The position numbers and the translations under genes were made by a program. A model generated the notes under the pieces. It was given only the letters and a program-made list of their open reading frames with translations, did no database searches and had not been told where the DNA came from. 24,000 bases of DNA from Candidatus Aenigmatarchaeota archaeon (GTDB taxonomy: Archaea > Aenigmatarchaeota > Aenigmatarchaeia > GW2011-AR5 > JAHLMP01), in contig JAGGUE010000030.1 in the NCBI GenBank assembly GCA_021158665.1, forward strand, positions 9,023-33,022, given 5' to 3'. Each line of letters begins with the position of its first letter. Positions within the stretch are counted from its first letter, which is position 1. Of this stretch, positions 4,017 to 22,558 are shown piece by piece.

Positions 4017-5006
4017 TTAAAACAAGTGTTTATCAATTATCTTTGCGCCGTCTCCGGGCCCGCATATTATAGTTTTCATTACACCGCCAAGTTCTGAGAG
4101 TTTTTTGTTTATCTTTTTTTCATTTTTTTTCAGGCACATTACAATGACATTTGGTCCGGCATCTATTGTGAAGTAGCATTCTATTCCCTCCTCTCGCTGT
4201 TCCCGAACGAAATCAATGATTTCCATCGTGGCGGGGGTCCAATAAATAATGGGCGGTTTTGTAGTAATCATCAATGCATGCATTTTCAGACAATTGTATT
4301 CCGCCGTTTGTCCGACTGATGAAAAATCCCTGTTTTTTATGCCATTTCTAATCAATTCCAAATCCCTGTCTATAGTCTCTAACCAACATTTATAATACGG
4401 ACATGTATTAACTGTTTGTGCCATCCCAGACCTTGAGCTGACTTTTTTCTCGGTTTTTGTAACAATTGCCGTGATCATTCTGAACTCATTCCAATGATTT
4501 TTATTAACTATGGATTCTGCGTAGCTGTCGCTTCCATCATCTTTATCGCCTTTATACCACTCAACAAAACCTTCGCAGACAGAGCGTGAAGCAGAACCAG
4601 AACCCTGACGGGTTAAAATTGTAAGGTCTTTTTCATTTAATTCTAATTTTGCCGCTTTTGTAGCGGCTAGTGTTAGTGCCGCAAAGCCGCTCGCAGAGCT
4701 TGCCAACCCGGCAGCAATTGGAAAGTTTGATTTTGAGACAATTTTCGATTTTTCTTTAATATTTGCAAGATTTCTTATTCGTTCTATATGATTTAATATG
4801 CCTTTTTCATCTTTTACGAGTTCTTTGCCATTTATGATAATACTATCTTTTTCATACTTTTTAGAAAATTCTACGGTCGTTACTGTGCTAAGTCCATCCA
4901 ACGTCATCGATATCGAGCTGTTGTACGGCAAAACAAGTTTTTTATCTCTTTTTCCCCAGTATTTTACCAATGCTATGTTTGCATTTGCTATGGCCGTTGC
5001 TTTCAT
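4017..5006 (-). CDS. mvaD: Diphosphomevalonate decarboxylase (MDD family GHMP enzyme)
   Basis: The supporting motifs are NIALVKYWGKRD, AAGLASSASGFAAL, GSGSASRS and TIDAGPNV, which are characteristic of MDD. An SD-like GAGGTAAT lies 3-4 nt upstream of the ATG. Diphospho- versus monophospho-substrate specificity cannot be judged by eye. Confidence 0.85.
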   Translation of the reverse strand: MKATAIANANIALVKYWGKRDKKLVLPYNSSISMTLDGLSTVTTVEFSKKYEKDSIIINGKELVKDEKGILNHIERIRNLANIKEKSKIVSKSNFPIAAGLASSASGFAALTLAATKAAKLELNEKDLTILTRQGSGSASRSVCEGFVEWYKGDKDDGSDSYAESIVNKNHWNEFRMITAIVTKTEKKVSSRSGMAQTVNTCPYYKCWLETIDRDLELIRNGIKNRDFSSVGQTAEYNCLKMHALMITTKPPIIYWTPATMEIIDFVREQREEGIECYFTIDAGPNVIVMCLKKNEKKINKKLSELGGVMKTIICGPGDGAKIIDKHLF

Positions 5007-5048
5007 TTTATTACCTCATAATTTGTCAATACAATAAAAATATTAATA

Positions 5049-5121
5049 TGGGTTTGGGGAGAATCGAACTCCCGATCTCCGCGATGTGAACGCGGCGTCA
5101 TTGCCACTAGACCACAAACCC
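5049..5121 (-). tRNA. tRNA-Val (anticodon CAC), 73 nt, no intron, no encoded CCA
   Basis: The reverse complement is GGGTTTGTGGTCTAGTGGCAATGACGCCGCGTTCACATCGCGGAGATCGGGAGTTCGATTCTCCCCAAACCCA. The acceptor stem is GGGTTTG/CAAACCC. The anticodon stem is CCGCG/CGCGG with loop TTCACAT. The T arm is GGGAG-TTCGATT-CTCCC and the discriminator is A. Confidence 0.9.
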
Positions 5122-5142
5122 AGCTCACAATAAATATTTAAA

Positions 5143-6036
5143 TTAAATATTTCTCATGAGCGATTTAATATCTATTAGAAATCTTTCAAACAATGATGAT
5201 TTGTCCCTTTGGGCAGAACACTTGATAAATTCAAGCAATCTGCTAATAATATCCATATTTATTACTTTTTCAACATCTTTAACCGGAGGCGATAAATCGA
5301 TGTTTAAAATTTTTTCACCTATCATATCTACTCTGGCAAACTCCGTGCCAATTATTTTCGCCGTTTTTATTGCCGCATTTTTTATTTTATCCGGTATTTT
5401 GCATCCCATCATTTTACCTTCTCCGAAGAAAATATCAGATTTCTTCGCGGGCTTTCTTTTTAGTCCAAACACATTGTCGCCTATCACATATATTTGCAGA
5501 TAACTTGTGTTTAGATATTCTTCAATATAAATCGTGTCTTTGAATGTCTCCAACGTATCGAGCATGGCTCTGAGCTCTGTGTTATTGTTCGCAAACATTA
5601 TTCCTTTTTCTTTGCTAGACAATCTTATAGAAATCGGGAACTTGATAGAATTTGCAATTGCTTGGGCCGATTTCTGGGAATTTAATAAATAAATTTCGGG
5701 TGTCTGTAATCCGTTTTTCATTATTTCACTAAACATTATAAATCTGTCGGATGTTATAAAATATGCTTTTGGTGATATCGGTGAATATACTTTAAGATTA
5801 TTTAAAACGCTATAAGCAAACAAACTTCTGCTTTTAGGTATTATCGGTAAAACGGAATCGAATTTTGACAAATCTACATTTTTGTAAATTATTTCATCAT
5901 TCCCCAAACTCATTAAAGAAAACGGAACATACAATACTGTATCAAAAAATTTTTTCGCTTTCTCTAAAAGTTCCAGATTGCTATGTGTTCTTTTCTCTGG
6001 GCCAATAATACACAGTTTCATAAAATCACTGAACAC
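5143..6036 (-). CDS. RimK-like ATP-grasp paralog with degenerate catalytic motifs
   Basis: The protein is collinear with the adjacent RimK (for example YIEEYL, YVIG, ARVDM). However, the Gly-rich loop GFGGRGV is replaced by SSKEKGI, R.N..GG by FGEGKMMG, and E.N by NID. The likely start is the ATG at 6021 (MKLCIIG), preceded by AGTGAT 3 nt upstream. Confidence 0.55.
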   Translation of the reverse strand: MFSDFMKLCIIGPEKRTHSNLELLEKAKKFFDTVLYVPFSLMSLGNDEIIYKNVDLSKFDSVLPIIPKSRSLFAYSVLNNLKVYSPISPKAYFITSDRFIMFSEIMKNGLQTPEIYLLNSQKSAQAIANSIKFPISIRLSSKEKGIMFANNNTELRAMLDTLETFKDTIYIEEYLNTSYLQIYVIGDNVFGLKRKPAKKSDIFFGEGKMMGCKIPDKIKNAAIKTAKIIGTEFARVDMIGEKILNIDLSPPVKDVEKVINMDIISRLLEFIKCSAQRDKSSLFERFLIDIKSLMRNI

Positions 6037-6044
6037 ATTTTTTA

Positions 6045-6926
6045 TTATTCCTCAACTTTTGACGCCATATATTCCACAATAAGTTTTGCGACATTAACAA
6101 ACGGTTGGATGCCTTTTAACCCGGGGTTTATATTTACTTCAATAACTTTTGGACCGTCTTTACTTTCAAGCATATCAACGGCAACGATATCGGAGTCTAT
6201 GGCCGATGCCGCCTTTATCGCAATGTCTTGCAACTCTTCGGATAGGGTAATGTATTCCGCGGTTCCGCCAGCCAAAATATTTGACCTGAATTCATCTTTT
6301 TTGCATTTTCTTCTATAACCGGCGACGACTCTGCCCCCGATTACATAAGCCCTTTTATCCTCATTTTTATTTTTTACATACTCTTCTATAATAAGTTGCT
6401 GTCTCATGAGTTTCAGTGTTTCCACGACGGATATTGCCGCCTCTAGATTCTCCAATAGCATTACACCGCGTCCGCCAAAACCGGATACAATCTTTATGAT
6501 AACGGGGTATTTCATTTTTTTCAATAATAGTTTTGCGGACTCTATTGATGAAACTAGGTACGTCTCCGGTACCGGGACACCCGCTCTTTTTAAGACATCC
6601 AATGACATAAATTTATTATGGGCTATTAATACCGTCTCGGCAGAGTATGGTTTTTTCATTCCTTTAATATCCATGAATTTAATTACATGATACCCATGCT
6701 GCGCCCGAGCGGCATCTATTCTTGGCAGGCAATAATCATAATTGCTTAAGTTCTCTTTTTTATAAAACATTTCCGATGACTTTTCATTAATTTTGAGGAC
6801 TATATCATTGAGTGGCACATACTTAACTTTATAAAATACCTTTTCAGCTTCTTTAATTATGGTCTTGGTAGTTATTCCGGCATTCTTCGCGCCAATTATT
6901 AATAAAGATTTTTTAATCATTTTCAA
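6045..6926 (-). CDS. rimK: RimK-family alpha-L-glutamate ligase (ATP-grasp)
   Basis: The supporting sequence is YPVIIKIVSGFGGRGVMLL, LIIEEYV, DKRAYVIGGRVV, FRSNILAGGTAE and VAVDMLESKDGPKVIEVNINPGL, a full set of ATP-grasp/RimK motifs. The likely start is the ATG at 6920 (AGTGAT 5 nt upstream), which overlaps the upstream gene stop as ATGATTAA. Confidence 0.85.
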   Translation of the reverse strand: MKMIKKSLLIIGAKNAGITTKTIIKEAEKVFYKVKYVPLNDIVLKINEKSSEMFYKKENLSNYDYCLPRIDAARAQHGYHVIKFMDIKGMKKPYSAETVLIAHNKFMSLDVLKRAGVPVPETYLVSSIESAKLLLKKMKYPVIIKIVSGFGGRGVMLLENLEAAISVVETLKLMRQQLIIEEYVKNKNEDKRAYVIGGRVVAGYRRKCKKDEFRSNILAGGTAEYITLSEELQDIAIKAASAIDSDIVAVDMLESKDGPKVIEVNINPGLKGIQPFVNVAKLIVEYMASKVEE

Positions 6927-7311
6927 TCACTAATCTTTTACCGTCTCTCAGATCCTTTTCATTGGGACTGAAATTAGATTTTTCAACATCTACAACAAAA
7001 TTTCCATATATTAGATTCCTGCCTATCAAAACCGGATATTCTAATTTACTTCTGTCGGCAATATTGGCTTTTGTTACGAATTTCTTACCTTTTATCTCAA
7101 AAATAACATCAACCACTCTTCGTCTTTCCATACCCAAGACGTTTTTTACTTTGGATGTTGATATGGTTTTAAGTCCGATTTTTTCTGCAATTTTTTTGTC
7201 GATCGAATTACATTTTGCTCCTGTATCAAATTTTGCTAATAGAGTAAGATTCTTCTTCCCGATTATTTTAATTTTTTCCACCAGCCCAACAACTTTTTTC
7301 ATTTTATTCAC
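6913..7311 (-). CDS. Retropepsin-like aspartic protease (COG4067 / 'putative ATP-dependent zinc protease' family, RimB-like)
   Basis: This is a ~130-aa protein with AKFDTGAKCNSI (a D-T-G-A retropepsin-type motif) and a later VLIGRN motif. Its size, motif and position immediately upstream of rimK match the RimK-associated protease family known from bacterial rimABK loci. Confidence 0.6.
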   Translation of the reverse strand: MNKMKKVVGLVEKIKIIGKKNLTLLAKFDTGAKCNSIDKKIAEKIGLKTISTSKVKNVLGMERRRVVDVIFEIKGKKFVTKANIADRSKLEYPVLIGRNLIYGNFVVDVEKSNFSPNEKDLRDGKRLVIEND

Positions 7312-7318
7312 AACATTT

Positions 7319-8311
7319 TTATAAAAATTTCAATATTTGAGTTTGTGTAAAACCTAGTTTTTTATACTCTTCAACTTCTTTTATTTTATTAATGATGTCA
7401 ATAATTATGCTTACGGTTTCTTTAGGGTACCATGTGCTCATAAATGAGTTTATTTCTATTTCGATCGCAACTTTGTTGCCATTTTTTATTATCTCTTTTT
7501 TCGGTCCTATTGCACTCTCTGCTGAAAAAATTTTTTCCAATGTAATGGACGGTTTTGGCATATTTCTGAGCGCTGATTTGCACGCAACCAAAAAATTATT
7601 CTTCGTTGCCTCGTTTTTTAACTTATTATAAATTTTTGAGTCCGCATATTGCTTAATGATTTTTACGGCATCCCTTTTTTCTGTTTCGAAAAAATCTTTC
7701 AATTCAAATGTTCTTAATTCTTCCATATATGTCACGTTCTTAAAATTATTTTCTATCTTAGAAAAAAAATCTTTATTCGAATCGTTTACATCATCAACTA
7801 TTTTTTTAAGCACATCTCTTCTTATTCCGCAATCATTAAATGTGATTAAGTCCATCACGCTTGGATAATTTTTTATTAATGCATATTCTCTGTGAAGAAA
7901 TATAATTAAATCTCCAGAAGCTCTTATATACGACCACAACGCTTTATAAATTCTCAGCCTTTCATAATAGTCTTTTTTATTGCTCGTTACAAATGCGTAT
8001 TTATTTTTATATTGTCTTACATCAGAACCGTTCGTTCGATTTATAAATTTTGGATACATATCAATCGCCATATCTATTGGCGGAACATCTCTATTAAAAT
8101 CGATACCCGTTATTTTATTTCTCGGTATAGTAGAAAGAATCAACGTGCCACCCATGCTTTCATAACACATACCCCCCATTATATCTGTATAATCATCTCT
8201 CGATGAAATGGTTTTCATCATCGGCCCGGTGTGAAGACAAACCCAAACCGGGCCGTAACCATTTTTATAAACTATAAAACCGTCATGAATTTCGGGTTGC
8301 ATGTTGGTCAC
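7319..8311 (-). CDS. Hypothetical hydrolase, N-formylglutamate amidohydrolase (FGase)-like N-terminal region plus an unknown C-terminal ~150 aa
   Basis: The order of motifs resembles the FGase family: CLHTGP, then SRDDYTD, then STIPRNKITGIDFNRD (compare SR..D.NR), then YYERL..GDLIIFLH, then IEIEIN (compare QiEi). This is recognised from memory and not searched. Start options are the GTG at 8311 or the ATG at 8302. Confidence 0.4.
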   Translation of the reverse strand: MTNMQPEIHDGFIVYKNGYGPVWVCLHTGPMMKTISSRDDYTDIMGGMCYESMGGTLILSTIPRNKITGIDFNRDVPPIDMAIDMYPKFINRTNGSDVRQYKNKYAFVTSNKKDYYERLRIYKALWSYIRASGDLIIFLHREYALIKNYPSVMDLITFNDCGIRRDVLKKIVDDVNDSNKDFFSKIENNFKNVTYMEELRTFELKDFFETEKRDAVKIIKQYADSKIYNKLKNEATKNNFLVACKSALRNMPKPSITLEKIFSAESAIGPKKEIIKNGNKVAIEIEINSFMSTWYPKETVSIIIDIINKIKEVEEYKKLGFTQTQILKFL

Positions 8312-8375: not shown

Positions 8376-8502
8376 GGGGTTGTAGTGTAGTCAAATGTGT
8401 CTATAAAGGTCTAGCACATCGATGAGCTAAAAGCTGGCTCCAGCTCAAGATGGAGCGGTGAGATGAAACCAGCCGACTCCGGTTCGAATCCGGACAACCC
8501 CA
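8376..8502 (+). tRNA. tRNA-Trp (anticodon CCA) gene interrupted by about 53 nt of intervening sequence (canonical-position intron plus extra D-arm-side insertions)
   Basis: The acceptor stem is GGGGTTG (8376-8382) paired with CAACCCC (8495-8501), with discriminator A at 8502. The T arm is TCCGG-TTCGAAT-CCGGA (8478-8494). The anticodon stem is GCTGG (8433-8437) paired with CCAGC (8469-8473), with loop start CTCCAG and anticodon CCA at 8440-8442. About 24 nt (8444-8467) lie between position 37 and position 38. The region from U8 to the anticodon stem is 50 nt instead of about 19. A D stem of GTGT (8385-8388) paired with GCAC (8414-8417) is possible. Exact splice junctions are not resolved. Confidence 0.7.
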
Positions 8503-8562
8503 CTTTATAATTATAAAAGAGTGTGTCTAAACAATTTTAAGGTTAAAGAGTAAAATTAATTC

Positions 8563-10863: not shown

Positions 10864-12456
10864 ATGGATAACATAATTCGCAAGACAAAATCCATTTGCC
10901 CTGAGTGCAACAAGATTCTCGACGCCACCGTATTTGAGAGAGACGGAAAGGTTATGATAAGCAAGGAGTGTCCGGAACACGGAAGATTCGAAGAGGTTTA
11001 TTGGGGCTCTTATGAGATGTATAAAAAAGCAGAAAAATTTTGGCACGACGGAAAGGGGACGAAGAACCCGAACGCGCCGGGCGGTCTTTGCCCGTTCTCA
11101 TGCGGTCTTTGCCCTGCCCACAAAAGCCATACGGCGCTGCTTAACATAGTCGTTACGAACCGATGCGACCTGCAGTGCTGGTATTGCTTCTTTTATTCAA
11201 AAAAAGCCGGTTATGTTTATGAGCCGACATTGGAACAGATAAGAGAGATGCTCAGAACGGCAAAGCGGGAAAAGCCAGTCCCGGCGAATGCGGTGCAAAT
11301 AACCGGAGGCGAGCCGACACTAAGAGATGATTTGCTCGACATAATAAAAATGGCAAAAGAGGAGGGCTATGCGCATGTTCAATTGAATACAAATGGCATA
11401 AGATTATCGCAGGATTTAGAGCTTGCCAAAAAAATCAAAGAAGCGGGCGTCAATACACTGTATCTCAGCTTTGATGGCGTAACGCCAAAAACCAATCCAA
11501 AAAATCATTACGAACTACCGAATGCCGTTGAGAACTGCAGAAAAGCGGGGATAGGAATAGTGCTTGTTCCAACCCTTATAAATACCGTGAATGACCATGA
11601 AATCGGCGACATGATAAGATTCGGCATGGAAAATATTGACATTGTAAGGGGTGTGAACTTCCAGCCAATTTCGCTCGTCGGAAGGACCCCGAAACGGGAA
11701 AGAGAAAAATTCAGAATTACGATACCCGATGCCATCAGGAAAATCGAAGAACAGACAAACGGAGAAATCTCAAAAGACGACTTTTACACGATACCGAGTG
11801 TAGTACCGATTACGCATCTTGTAGAAGCAATCAAGCAGAAACCGCAATATGAATTTTCATGTTCTCCGTTTTGCGGAATGGCAACGTATGTGTTCAAGCG
11901 GGATGACGGAAAGATAATTCCCATAACGAGGTTTGTGGATGTTGACGGGTTCTTGGAATACATCCAGTGCATGGCAGATGAAATTAACAATTCAAGAATA
12001 AAACAAATTAAAAAATGGTATGTATTGCTAAAGGCCGCAAAAAATATCGGAAAATTTATAGACGAAGAAAAACAGCCAAAGGGATTGGACCTGAAGAAAA
12101 TTTTGATTAACATAGCAAAGCGCGGCGGAGATTATAACTCATTGGGAAAATTTCATGTAAAGTCCATGCTTATAGGAATGATGCACTTTCAGGACAAGTT
12201 CAATTATGATATACAAAGGGTTGAAAGATGTATAATACATTATGCAACGCCGGACAGAAAAATAATCCCGTTCTGCGCTTTCAATGTTCTTCCAGAGATT
12301 TATCGCGACAAGATACAGCAAGAATACGGTATTTCCATAGACGAGTGGGAAAAGAAAACCGGAAAGAAATTAGAGGACGACGTATATAAAAGAGATACAG
12401 AAAAATTAAAATCAAGCCCCAATTATCACGAAATTTATAAAAACTTCGTGAAATAA
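10864..12456 (+). CDS. Radical SAM enzyme, MJ0619-type (class D methylase-like / tetraether lipid synthase Tes, GDGT-MAS family)
   Basis: The N-terminal zinc ribbon/rubredoxin-like segment is CPECNKIL...CPEHG. An auxiliary CPFSCGLCPAH (Cx3Cx2C) follows. The canonical radical SAM motif is NRCDLQCWYC, followed by ITGGEPTLR. The ~530-aa size and the C-terminal Cys residues also fit. The radical SAM assignment is solid. The Tes family assignment is from memory of the family architecture. Confidence 0.75.
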   Translation: MDNIIRKTKSICPECNKILDATVFERDGKVMISKECPEHGRFEEVYWGSYEMYKKAEKFWHDGKGTKNPNAPGGLCPFSCGLCPAHKSHTALLNIVVTNRCDLQCWYCFFYSKKAGYVYEPTLEQIREMLRTAKREKPVPANAVQITGGEPTLRDDLLDIIKMAKEEGYAHVQLNTNGIRLSQDLELAKKIKEAGVNTLYLSFDGVTPKTNPKNHYELPNAVENCRKAGIGIVLVPTLINTVNDHEIGDMIRFGMENIDIVRGVNFQPISLVGRTPKREREKFRITIPDAIRKIEEQTNGEISKDDFYTIPSVVPITHLVEAIKQKPQYEFSCSPFCGMATYVFKRDDGKIIPITRFVDVDGFLEYIQCMADEINNSRIKQIKKWYVLLKAAKNIGKFIDEEKQPKGLDLKKILINIAKRGGDYNSLGKFHVKSMLIGMMHFQDKFNYDIQRVERCIIHYATPDRKIIPFCAFNVLPEIYRDKIQQEYGISIDEWEKKTGKKLEDDVYKRDTEKLKSSPNYHEIYKNFVK

Positions 12457-12547: not shown

Positions 12548-13960
12548 ATGACCAAAAAAATTACGGTGATTTTGCTCTCGCTCTTTATCGCGGGCTTGTC
12601 ATTAAGGCTTTACCAGCCTCTCTCAACTGGCCATATAGTCGGGGTTGACGGATATTATCATATACATATTGCAGATTTGTATAAACAAGGAATAATGCCA
12701 TTGTCATCATACCCGCCGGGAATTCATATAACGCTGTTTTTGTTCAATTTCCTGACTGGAATCGGCATGGAGTTCTCCGCGATTCTGCTTTCCTCGTTTT
12801 TTTCGGCAATTGCAGTCATTGCCGCTTTTTTGTTAACGAAAACAGAATTTGGCGGCAAAGCTGGTTTATATGCCGCCATGTTCGTTTCATTATCATCGGC
12901 TATGATAGTTTACGGGTCAAGGGTAAAGAATTTGAATTTCGTTTTGCCGATTCTCCTTTTTGGCTTGCTGCTGAATGCCAAAAACAAGACAATTCCCTTT
13001 ATAGCAACGTTTTCGATTCTCATCCTGTTTTCGCCATTTGACGCATGTCTGCTCGCGATATTCTCAATGCTCTATAATTTTCTGGACTCAAAAACTTGCA
13101 GACATAAACTCATGACAACAAAGTTCTCACTTTATGTTATTCTTTTGATATCGGCCGTTTTTATTGCCTCTTTTTATGTGAATGGTTCGATAATAAGTCT
13201 TTATTTTACAAAAGCGATTCCAGAGGGTATGAACGAAATTCTTTTCTACACGCCAAGCGCTTCAGAGTTGTTGACTTTTTTAAGCCCGATAATGTTAGCG
13301 TTCGGCATTATTGGAATCTTTTATTCGGTGAAAAAAAGAAAATTCATTTCTTTGATAATCCTTTTATCAATTTTGCTGATTATATTCCCGCTTCGCATAA
13401 TTGAGACCGACAGATGCTATGTTTACATAACCGCATTTTTATCCATCTTTTCCGGTTATGGCCTTTTCAAGTTTATGGATTTTGTCGGCAAGACGAGATT
13501 CTCAATAATTACTCAAGCGACAACCATTATAATTATTTTAATGTCGAGCGGTTTCCTGATATCAGAGGGTCTGAAATATAATAACTGGGGAATAATGAAT
13601 GAAAAGAGGTATGACATGTTCAGCTGGCTCAGATACAATACGCCGCAAAACTCCGTTGTTCTTGGGACAATAACAGAAAGTAATTGGATTTCTGGGATTG
13701 GTTCAAGAAAACCCATGGCCGATTCGAATCTCATAGCAGAACCAAGTTTGACACAACACTTTAATGACATATACACAATATATACGACCGAAAACCAAAG
13801 TTTACGCAAAGAATTATTAAACAGATACGATATTTCATATATTATTATTTCGGACAAAACGTACTGGAGATTTGGCGATGTCAGAAATAATTTCAACGCA
13901 ATGGATTTCGAATTGGTTTACAGAAATGAGCCGTATGAGATTTTCAGGTATAAAAGATAA
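12548..13960 (+). CDS. Polytopic membrane protein, GT-C-fold glycosyltransferase-like (STT3/AglB- or ArnT/PMT-like), function uncertain
   Basis: The protein has about 10 or more hydrophobic segments followed by a soluble C-terminal domain of about 120 aa. The first loop has VGVDGYYHIH, reminiscent of the acidic first-loop motif of oligosaccharyltransferases. There is no WWDYG; SNWISGIG occupies the equivalent position. Confidence 0.45.
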   Translation: MTKKITVILLSLFIAGLSLRLYQPLSTGHIVGVDGYYHIHIADLYKQGIMPLSSYPPGIHITLFLFNFLTGIGMEFSAILLSSFFSAIAVIAAFLLTKTEFGGKAGLYAAMFVSLSSAMIVYGSRVKNLNFVLPILLFGLLLNAKNKTIPFIATFSILILFSPFDACLLAIFSMLYNFLDSKTCRHKLMTTKFSLYVILLISAVFIASFYVNGSIISLYFTKAIPEGMNEILFYTPSASELLTFLSPIMLAFGIIGIFYSVKKRKFISLIILLSILLIIFPLRIIETDRCYVYITAFLSIFSGYGLFKFMDFVGKTRFSIITQATTIIIILMSSGFLISEGLKYNNWGIMNEKRYDMFSWLRYNTPQNSVVLGTITESNWISGIGSRKPMADSNLIAEPSLTQHFNDIYTIYTTENQSLRKELLNRYDISYIIISDKTYWRFGDVRNNFNAMDFELVYRNEPYEIFRYKR

Positions 13961-20947: not shown

Positions 20948-22558
20948 TTACCCGCATTCCACTGTTATTCTCAACTTTCCGTTTATTGTTTGCGTTGATA
21001 CAATTTTGCAATTCTCGATGTCAGCGATTTTTTGAGAACCCGTTGCATTCGCGGTTTCAGAAACCGGAACCTCTTTCCAGCCAAACAGCCTGACCTGCTC
21101 GCTTTTCGCATCAACCACAGCAATCGACCTCAATACCATGGCCTCGCGCACACCGGAATAAATTGGTATGACATAAAAATAACCGTCCTTTATTTTTTTG
21201 AAAAGAGGTTGCAAAGGATACCAATCCCTGTACAACGATATCTGGCCCCTTACATCGTCCAATGCCCTTTCCGGTCCTATCAGGCCAAGCGACCTGCAAT
21301 CATATATCGCAATATTACCATAGTTTTGACCCGACGCGTCAATTTCGATAAAATGCGTTATTGATTTTCTTTTCCATCCTTCCGGCTCTAGCTGCATCAA
21401 CGCGTATCTGCGATTCGTCCGTTTTTCATACTGAAAGTACAGGTCTCCGACCGGTTCAAAAACATTTTCGTGCTGGAAATTATAATCTATAAAACCCTTC
21501 CATGAGTTGAATTTTGCCCATTTATAGATTCTCGTTTCCGTGTATTGTTCGTCTATCAGTATCTGCTCCAGCAACCAGTCGGGTACATCCCCGTTTTTAA
21601 TTTCATCTCTTGAATAAAATTTAGCTTTGCCCTCATTATCTATTTCGGCAATCCCAACCTGATCTGTGTAGAATTTTACGATAAAAATGGTTGGAAATCT
21701 CATCTTTGCTGGAGCGATCCACACGGGTTCTCCTTTATCGTTATGAGTAAAAATCGAATCCCCAAAATCAAGATAAGGGTATTTCAACCACAGAATGAGA
21801 TTTATATCCCTTATTTTCCCGTTTATAATCTGGTACAAAATTTCTATCAAACCGTTTCTTTCTTCCGAATAGGAGATGCTTTCACTTATCTTTTTTCTGT
21901 CAGACGGGTTTTGCGCATTTACCATAATATATGCTGGCGAAGGTTCCTTAAAGTTCATAAGCTTGTCGGGTTCGTATGCCATAACCCAGTAAAGCGTTTT
22001 GTTAACTGGATAAATGCCGTCCCAGTCATCTGACAACCGCCATCCGGTTTCCGTTATCAGAGTCTTCGGTATTTGCAATGCATATTCCTGTGCAACAATT
22101 CTCATGTCTTTTATATCATCCCACACGATATCATTTATGTTTGTTGTCGGCAGTTTTTCAAGCTTTGTTATCGGGACATCGTTCATGTAATACCAAGAGA
22201 CTTCGCGAGGCGGTGCAAACACCGCCGCAAGGAGATATAGAAAAATGATTGCTATGATGGGTGCCGCAACCAATGAAATTCCTTCTCTGGACAGCGTGAA
22301 TGCGTCGCCTCTCATCTTGAACGATTTCAAAAGGCCCGTCGCGAGAATGCGGATGAAAACCGCCGCCATTAAAGAGCCGACGGGAGAATTTGATATCAGG
22401 AAAATGCCAAAGAACCACGATATTATAAAGTCGGTGACAATAGATTTTTTGAAAAATTTATTGGCGATTCCAAATATGGATATGCATCCAACCAGAGCAG
22501 CCCATATAGTATAAAATCCGATAAAGCCAAGCGAATTGAAAAGATTTAACCAGAACAT
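20948..22558 (-). CDS. Membrane protein with about 4 N-terminal TM helices and a large extracytoplasmic domain; possible short relative of the UPF0182/COG1615 family
   Basis: The N-terminal 110 aa are hydrophobic. The C-terminal stretch NYGNIAIYDCRSLGLIGPERALDDVRGQISLYRDW...YFYVIPIYSG...LRSIAVVD resembles my recollection of the conserved UPF0182 C-terminus. This is not verified. Confidence 0.35.
   Translation of the reverse strand: MFWLNLFNSLGFIGFYTIWAALVGCISIFGIANKFFKKSIVTDFIISWFFGIFLISNSPVGSLMAAVFIRILATGLLKSFKMRGDAFTLSREGISLVAAPIIAIIFLYLLAAVFAPPREVSWYYMNDVPITKLEKLPTTNINDIVWDDIKDMRIVAQEYALQIPKTLITETGWRLSDDWDGIYPVNKTLYWVMAYEPDKLMNFKEPSPAYIMVNAQNPSDRKKISESISYSEERNGLIEILYQIINGKIRDINLILWLKYPYLDFGDSIFTHNDKGEPVWIAPAKMRFPTIFIVKFYTDQVGIAEIDNEGKAKFYSRDEIKNGDVPDWLLEQILIDEQYTETRIYKWAKFNSWKGFIDYNFQHENVFEPVGDLYFQYEKRTNRRYALMQLEPEGWKRKSITHFIEIDASGQNYGNIAIYDCRSLGLIGPERALDDVRGQISLYRDWYPLQPLFKKIKDGYFYVIPIYSGVREAMVLRSIAVVDAKSEQVRLFGWKEVPVSETANATGSQKIADIENCKIVSTQTINGKLRITVECG

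Follow-up and report, generated by a model that had tools for sequence, protein, structure and literature searches.

The stretch of DNA analyzed here (the window) comprises 24,000 nucleotides (nt) of contig JAGGUE010000030.1 from a Candidatus Aenigmatarchaeota archaeon. It contains a compact cassette of four genes, designated A to D in the order of transcription, which encode a predicted hydrolase (A), a RimB-like protease (B), an intact RimK-family ligase (C) and a RimK-fold paralogue with eroded catalytic motifs (D). The four co-directional open reading frames (ORFs) occupy positions 5143 to 8311 of the minus strand and are listed for the window with lengths of 330, 132, 293 and 297 amino acids (aa), respectively. 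The coordinates of the genes and of the features around them are given in Table 1.

Table 1. Genes and features of the RimK-RimB-like cassette and its boundaries (window coordinates).
Feature	Position	Strand	Description
Gene A	7319..8311	-	330 aa, probably 327 aa (ATG 8302); predicted metal-dependent amidohydrolase/carboxypeptidase with N-formylglutamate amidohydrolase (FGase)-like fold
Gene B	6913..7311	-	132-aa RimB-like retropepsin-type aspartic protease (PF05618), motif FD29TGAK
Gene C	6045..6920	-	291-aa intact RimK-family alpha-L-glutamate ligase (ATP-grasp)
Gene D	5143..6036	-	292- to 297-aa paralogue with the RimK fold, eroded catalytic motifs and a C-terminal helix specific to its family; predicted to be a non-catalytic partner
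ATGATTAA	6913..6920	-	8-nt overlap of the B stop and the C start ATG, translational coupling; sequence read directly
AGTGAT, Shine-Dalgarno-like	6926..6931	-	6 nt 5' of the C ATG, within the end of B
AGTGAT, Shine-Dalgarno-like	6025..6030	-	4 nt 5' of the probable D start, ATG 6021
tRNA-Val(CAC)	5048..5122	-	20 nt beyond D; bounds the cassette on its downstream side; ARAGORN and Rfam
tRNA-Leu(CAA), intron-containing	8376..8503	+	Divergent; upstream boundary of the cassette; ARAGORN with intron option

The bounds of the ORFs are exactly those of a preliminary description made from the sequence, which had reported four co-directional genes separated by 7 to 8 nt or overlapping at positions 6913 to 6920. 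The stop codon of A is followed after 7 nt by the GTG of B, and that of C after 8 nt by the GTG of D. The true starts of A, C and D are probably located slightly inside the ORFs, as suggested by alignments with homologues: these point to ATG 8302 for A (the homologue P0001 begins with MQPEIH), ATG 6920 for C, whose listed ORF extends from 6045 to 6926, and ATG 6021 for D (MKLCIIG). The preliminary description had also proposed Shine-Dalgarno-like motifs within the upstream coding ends. The motif AGTGAT was present 5' of C and D, but no motif of this type was found 5' of B. In the whole window, motifs of this type were not significantly enriched (20 found, 17 expected), and several of the minus-strand copies are located directly 5' of gene starts. 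The proposal that the four genes form one operon was supported by the conserved coupling of the genes in related loci, as described below.

Gene C was assigned to the RimK family by TIGR00768 (197.6 bits; cut-off, 143.4), in agreement with the preliminary description. Its product shares 100% identity with an annotated protein of a Candidatus Aenigmarchaeota metagenome-assembled genome. The ATP-grasp domain matched PF08443 over residues 102 to 286 (148.4 bits; cut-off, 21; E value, 2.3e-43), and the pre-ATP-grasp domain Rimk_N was also found. The closest solved structures by sequence were the RimK proteins of Pseudomonas and Escherichia coli (E values of 1.6e-38 to 1e-37), while the matches to solved ArgX and LysX were much weaker (1e-25 to 1e-20). 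C scored below the cut-offs of the equivalog models for S6--L-glutamate ligase (NF007764; 151.8 bits; cut-off, 331), MptN (157.1; 350), CofF (109.1; 300) and LysX (155.7; 275.6). Ten residues were invariant in 112 DPANN members of the C family: the ATP-binding lysine K143, the three flexible-loop glycines G149, G150 and G152, D188 and R190 of the D-x-R motif, the asparagine N214 of the R/K-x-N motif, and the Mg ligands D249, E261 and N263 (D...E-x-N). These include the positions aligned with R189, D248, E260 and N262 of Pseudomonas RimK (RimK_PA). R189 and N262 of RimK_PA contact bound poly-Glu (PMC10092738) and match the arginine of D-x-R and the asparagine of E-x-N in C. RimK proteins of the C type form more than 100 clusters, are widespread in DPANN archaea and are often solitary (e.g., loci L055 to L057 of the survey described below). 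Two of these solitary genes, in L056 (6168 to 8879) and L057, are located directly downstream of or near the gene for the catalytic subunit of an A-type ATPase.

Gene B matched PF05618 (44.9 bits; gathering cut-off, 27; E value, 1.4e-11). Its motif FD29TGAK was aligned with the DTGAK motif of the PDB sequence matches 2pma, 9g58 and 9g59, and the YPxLxGR motif was aligned as well, which bears out the preliminary view of B as a retropepsin-like protein. In Pseudomonas RimB, D31 of the DTG motif is catalytic (PMC11957791), and the motif is equivalent to that of D29 in B. The scores of B were below the cut-offs of the equivalog models for RimB (NF052261; 19.2 bits; cut-off, 200) and RloA3 (44.2 bits; cut-off, 210).

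Gene D shares 27% identity with C. It passed the cut-off of PF08443 (43.2 bits; cut-off, 21) and was below that of TIGR00768 (60.6 bits; cut-off, 143.4). The AlphaFold 2 (AF2) model of D had a predicted local distance difference test score (pLDDT) of 86.6, and Foldseek aligned it with the RimK structures 5zct, 7qyr and 7qys at template modeling (TM) scores of 0.80 to 0.86; matches to ArgX and LysX were also obtained. The catalytic positions, in the numbering of C, were altered in 13 to 16 of the 16 D-family sequences. K143 is replaced by R, G149 is deleted, and another glycine of the loop is replaced by Lys or Glu. D188 is replaced by Y, M or V, R190 by Q or S, and N214 by I or V, and the E-x-N motif is converted to N-x-E/D by replacement of E261 with N and of N263 with E or D. 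The D family also has a motif of its own, VVNIELNP, and a family-specific C-terminal helix. Since the replacements are conserved and are accompanied by these distinctive features, D is judged to be under selection and to be a maintained pseudo-ligase with a RimK fold, predicted to be non-catalytic, rather than a decaying pseudogene. The preliminary description of D as a degenerate RimK paralogue is consistent with this pattern of a retained fold and replaced catalytic residues, which extends across the family.

Gene A had no match in Pfam (E value of up to 1), NCBIfam, PHROGs, PADLOC or PDB sequence-profile searches, and ten distant relatives of A had no Pfam match either, including PF05013. 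Membership of A in PF05013 is therefore not supported at the level of sequence profiles. At 90% identity the family forms 35 clusters, and a set of 1.84 billion proteins contained 87 representatives; all of them are from DPANN archaea. The AF2 model of A (pLDDT, 90.3; predicted TM score, 0.88) was compared with the PDB by Foldseek, and the sole matches below 1e-3 were five chains of 2odf (Atu2144), with E values of 1.4e-4 to 7.3e-4, a probability of 1.0 and TM scores of 0.53 to 0.56 normalized to the target. Weaker fold matches followed, to TAFI, the tubulin deglutamylase CCP5 (8v3p; E value, 0.04), AmiC-type amidases (AmiC2) and Csd4, and further to the succinylglutamate desuccinylase AstE and carboxypeptidases A and T. 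A viral structure library also gave weak matches to the superfamily of FGase-like proteins and Zn-carboxypeptidases. The structures 2odf and 2q7s, the latter an FGase, are the nearest structural neighbors of the poly-gamma-glutamate hydrolases PghP and PghL (PMC6506827).

Ten residues of A were invariant in 35 homologues (H27, G29, R38, D39, R64, D71, N73, R74, H140 and E286), and these include most of the motifs that had been listed in the preliminary description. The invariant residues appear in the order H...D...R...N-R...H...E and are located at the ends of strands in the AF2 model or in the loops after them. In carboxypeptidase A, the zinc ligands, the Asn-Arg carboxylate clamp and the catalytic Glu have a matching order. 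A helical insertion of about 85 residues (approximately residues 165 to 250) was also present. The modeled fold and the motifs together support an FGase-like/Zn-carboxypeptidase fold for A, as had been suggested at the outset from the motif order.

Two further features of the A family were observed. In the distant relatives P0106 to P0125 (alignments A2 and A3), a module consisting of a beta-strand, PHxG and Asp, which is N-terminal in A, is shifted about 110 residues toward the C terminus and is flanked by the long helix and the His-bearing strand (hhalign, 99.8%). This arrangement suggests that the fold is permuted within the family. Tandem A paralogues of 302 and 339 aa were located side by side in L018 (5803 to 7752) and L019 (106 to 2055).

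The neighborhood survey covered 45 genome loci with A relatives (L numbers) together with contigs obtained from protein look-ups, whose ORFs were searched with A to D. The cassette was conserved, as A-B-C-D or as B-C-D-x-A, in eight distinct Aenigmarchaeota loci with differing flanking genes. Contiguous and tightly coupled A-B-C-D was present in the window, L001, L006 (on the same contig as L010) and L011, and the flanks differed in each. The gap between A and B was 5 to 17 nt in the window, L001 and L011. B, C and D were coupled with 0-nt gaps or 1- or 4-nt overlaps in L001, L006 and L011, and the recurrence of this tight coupling indicates that the packing is not due to chance. In L018, L026 and L027 the order was B-C-D-MscS-A, with a gene for an MscS-like channel inserted before A, and L033 contained C-D-A and ended at a contig edge. 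These results show that the four-gene cassette is conserved as a unit within part of the Aenigmarchaeota. The co-conservation expected in the preliminary description was thus found in the eight loci, but it is limited to that part of the lineage, and A often occurs alone and C is often solitary.

Other arrangements linked A with only some of the partners or with different ligases. D-MscS-A-GNAT was present in L021, L025 and L029, with B and C both absent over a distance of at least 8 kb, and A was located within 0 to 1.6 kb of B only in L003, L005, L020 and L023. A adjoins another ATP-grasp ligase in L012, L017 (both YheC/D-like) and L048 (RimK-like); L012 and L017 are Aenigmarchaeota loci without RimK genes. 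In both, the YheC/D-like ligase gene, whose product matches TTL weakly, is a divergent neighbor directly adjoining A (L012, 8979 to 9923, minus strand; L017, 2337 to 3335, minus strand). In a sister clade (L008, L009, L018, L021, L025 to L027, L029, L033 and L045), A was followed by a GNAT acetyltransferase gene and preceded by the gene for the MscS-like channel. The GNAT gene was detected in 11 loci, with a 4-nt overlap in L008, and the channel gene in 9; together with upstream D, and sometimes B and C, the cluster comprised up to six genes. A was recurrently, although not obligatorily, associated with amide-bond ligases and B.

The preliminary description had interpreted the cassette as a write/erase module for glutamyl modification. 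Its family assignments were correct, and none of the results that it had named as refuting was obtained: A and B have the expected folds, C falls short of the MptN and CofF models, and no cofactor pathway is encoded close by. From the observed gene structure, families and folds, residue conservation and loss, and conserved linkage, we likewise infer the function and the substrate, including the enzymatic activities, the roles of A and D and a complex of D with C or A. The interpretation that we favor, and to which we would give about an even chance, is that of an archaeal RimK-RimB module with added parts, which would assemble alpha-linked glutamate chains and take them apart again in a cycle of either poly-alpha-glutamate or C-terminal glutamylation. 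The analogy is with RimK and RimB of Pseudomonas, the sole characterized pair of a RimK and a PF05618 protein. There, RimK adds alpha-linked Glu tails to RpsF and also produces free poly-alpha-Glu, and RimB cleaves stretches of five or more Glu residues and stimulates the synthesis of poly-alpha-Glu by RimK (PMC11957791).

In such a cycle, C would add L-glutamate, at the expense of ATP, to an acceptor carboxyl group, which could belong to the C terminus of a protein or to a primer of free glutamate or oligo-glutamate. B would act as a dimeric retropepsin-type endopeptidase that cuts within oligo-Glu, and it may also modulate C in the way that RimB modulates Pseudomonas RimK. A may be a metal-dependent hydrolase whose active site is laid out like that of a carboxypeptidase; it would release glutamate with a free alpha-carboxylate, either by trimming the tails from the end or by degrading the oligo-Glu fragments made by B to monomers. 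Its putative metal ligands are H27, D39 and H140, with E286 as the candidate general base and R64, N73 and R74 as a possible carboxylate clamp. D, in which the Mg ligands and the glycine loop are missing along with the lysine that binds ATP and the arginine that binds the acceptor, is most likely a non-catalytic subunit. It could be a partner of C in a RimK-type tetramer or a poly-Glu-binding adaptor serving A; the latter role is suggested by the linkage of D and A in loci without C.

A bolder version of the favored interpretation, which we consider distinctly doubtful, is a four-part glutamate-polymer cycle of DPANN archaea without a bacterial counterpart, in which C would be the writer, D a pseudo-enzyme reader that binds poly-Glu, B the endo-eraser and A the exo-eraser. 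It might mark an archaeal protein with a reversible code of polyglutamylation, or act as a fast osmotic or charge buffer in which the cytoplasmic glutamate pool is polymerized and depolymerized; the buffer would be in keeping with the MscS channel and the GNAT gene in the clusters of the sister lineages.

Several observations weigh against a glutamylation cycle. To our knowledge, archaea have no bS6, the target of the bacterial enzyme. The preliminary description had proposed a search for Glu-rich or Glu-Glu C termini, and in the window and about 800 kb of related loci the search for ORFs with acidic tails yielded no conserved protein with a terminal Glu or Glu-Glu; a 97-aa ORF located 5' of the solitary RimK gene of L055 ends with KLTK. 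The C-terminal VEE of C itself is not conserved across its relatives, and S7 and R8, two residues of RimK_PA that contact poly-Glu, are not conserved in C. The characterized enzymes of the FGase family act on small molecules. In about 27 of about 45 distinct loci, including nearly all of those from Woesearchaeota/Nanoarchaeia, A had no B, RimK-type or ATP-grasp partner in the available flanks; in Woesearchaeota, its conserved neighbor was the gene for a divergent RsmB/F-type methyltransferase. The function of A may therefore not depend on RimK.

The partnerless loci, together with the frequent solitary relatives of C, would be explained if A were a stand-alone housekeeping hydrolase of DPANN archaea that lies beside B, C and D by chance in some lineages, so that only the latter three form a system. 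We regard this as quite unlikely, since about 18 distinct loci, with several arrangements and different flanks, have A next to at least one of B, C or D, or a further ATP-grasp ligase, which is not explained by inherited synteny alone; the short distance between A and B in the three loci given above also argues against it. A loading pathway of the LysX/ArgX type, in which C and D would place an amino-acid precursor on a LysW-like carrier and A would release the product like LysK, is suggested by the score of C on the LysX model and by the fold matches of D to ArgX and LysX. This explanation is highly improbable. The LysX score is far from its cut-off, and the sequence matches of C favor RimK over LysX and ArgX. 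In addition, no LysW-, LysZ-, LysY- or LysJ-like genes were found in the window or in the related cassettes L001, L006 and L011, and B would have no role in such a pathway.

A more credible competitor, though still an unlikely one, is small-molecule metabolism. C would then ligate glutamate to a metabolite or an N-acyl amino acid, comparable to MptN, CofF and the mammalian N-acetylaspartylglutamate (NAAG) synthases RIMKLA/B, and the product could be a compatible solute; A would hydrolyze an N-acyl-glutamate-type product as FGase hydrolyzes N-formyl-glutamate. Known FGases act on small N-acyl-glutamates, and 2odf, the structure that A matches best in fold, is FGase-like. The scores of C on the MptN and S6-ligase models are nearly equal (157 and 152 bits), and the GNAT and MscS-like genes of the sister clade would fit the handling of an osmolyte. 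However, only one clade shows this synteny, which may be an inherited gene order, and the window contains no GNAT, MscS or cofactor-pathway gene, including those for methanopterin and F420. C is far under the cut-offs for MptN, CofF and LysX, and B belongs to a family of peptide endopeptidases in which the sole characterized RimK partner cuts poly-Glu (PMC11957791). A link to methanopterin was also considered and rejected because the nearby radical-SAM gene, whose product has the Pfam domain 'HMPTM zinc ribbon', encodes the lipid synthase Tes (746 bits) and not a pterin methylase. A defense-system function was rejected because no PADLOC match was obtained.

The glutamylation module proposed here can be compared with several known systems. 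The RimABK (RimB-RimK) module for RpsF polyglutamylation in Pseudomonas is alike in that RimK, an ATP-grasp ligase, is encoded beside a PF05618 protease with the DTG motif and is translationally coupled to it, and for C as well as for D the nearest solved structure is RimK. In contrast, the archaeal host has no bS6/RpsF, a RimA (EAL) gene is absent, the eroded RimK paralogue D and the FGase-like hydrolase A are additional, and B and C score far below the cut-offs for RimB and the S6 ligase. The RimK-RimB core is a characterized bacterial system (PMC11957791, PMC7343187), so that only A, D and the archaeal setting are new; the statement in the preliminary description that the cassette is not a characterized system holds for these but not for the core. 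In the searchable literature, no paper was found that pairs RimK with FGase-like enzymes, succinylglutamate desuccinylase or Aenigmarchaeota. The amidoligase survey of Iyer et al. from 2009 is said to cover RimK operons with COG4067 proteases and carboxypeptidase-fold enzymes.

A shares with the FGase family (PF05013; 2odf and 2q7s), which provides its best structural match, the motif order H / D / (D)xNR / H / E. PghP and PghL, which act on glutamate polymers, rely for cleavage on a catalytic Glu and a zinc site formed by His/Glu/His (PMC6506827). A differs from these enzymes in that it has no profile match to PF05013 or a PDB chain and is about 80 residues longer, due to the helical insertion. 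MptN, CofF, LysX and ArgX belong to the same ATP-grasp subfamily as C (TIGR00768), but C is below the equivalog cut-offs, and cofactor or LysW pathway genes are not located nearby. We know of no RimB-like protease that acts as a partner of these four ligases. The eukaryotic TTLL ligases (ATP-grasp) and CCP deglutamylases (M14 carboxypeptidase fold) likewise pair an ATP-grasp glutamate ligase with a carboxypeptidase-fold hydrolase. The resemblance is one of analogy only. Different families are involved, and nothing in the present data points to a cytoskeletal or other specific protein target.

The genes around the cassette include several for archaeal informational proteins (aIF5B, archaeal-type ProRS, TFS, GINS and PriL). 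The divergent tRNA-Leu(CAA) gene has a 38-nt intron and was missed by ARAGORN with default settings and by Rfam at the gathering threshold. The Tes gene, for a synthase of tetraether (glycerol dialkyl glycerol tetraether; GDGT) lipids, is located at 10864 to 12456 on the plus strand (NF045702; cut-off, 450). Near it, on the minus strand, are two GHMP kinase genes and one diphosphomevalonate-decarboxylase-like gene (653 to 1765, 1782 to 2831 and 4017 to 5006). The presence of genes for both the mevalonate pathway and tetraether synthesis in a genome of the Aenigmarchaeota, a DPANN lineage, is notable. Many DPANN archaea are thought to depend on a host for lipids. Two ORFs of the window, at 12548 to 13960 (plus strand; 470 aa) and 20948 to 22558 (minus strand; 536 aa), had no Pfam or NCBIfam match.

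Polyglutamylation by RimK is understood only for the bacterial protein S6, and here the ligase-protease core is conserved, together with two conserved partners, in archaea that lack S6. The A family is a previously undescribed family without a Pfam model and shows a carboxypeptidase-like pattern of active-site residues. If the proposed roles are correct, the cassette would represent a prokaryotic parallel to the writer-eraser pair of TTLL and CCP enzymes and would provide the first function for the DPANN-specific hydrolase family A. The target of a RimK in the absence of S6 would then be directly testable with four small soluble proteins.

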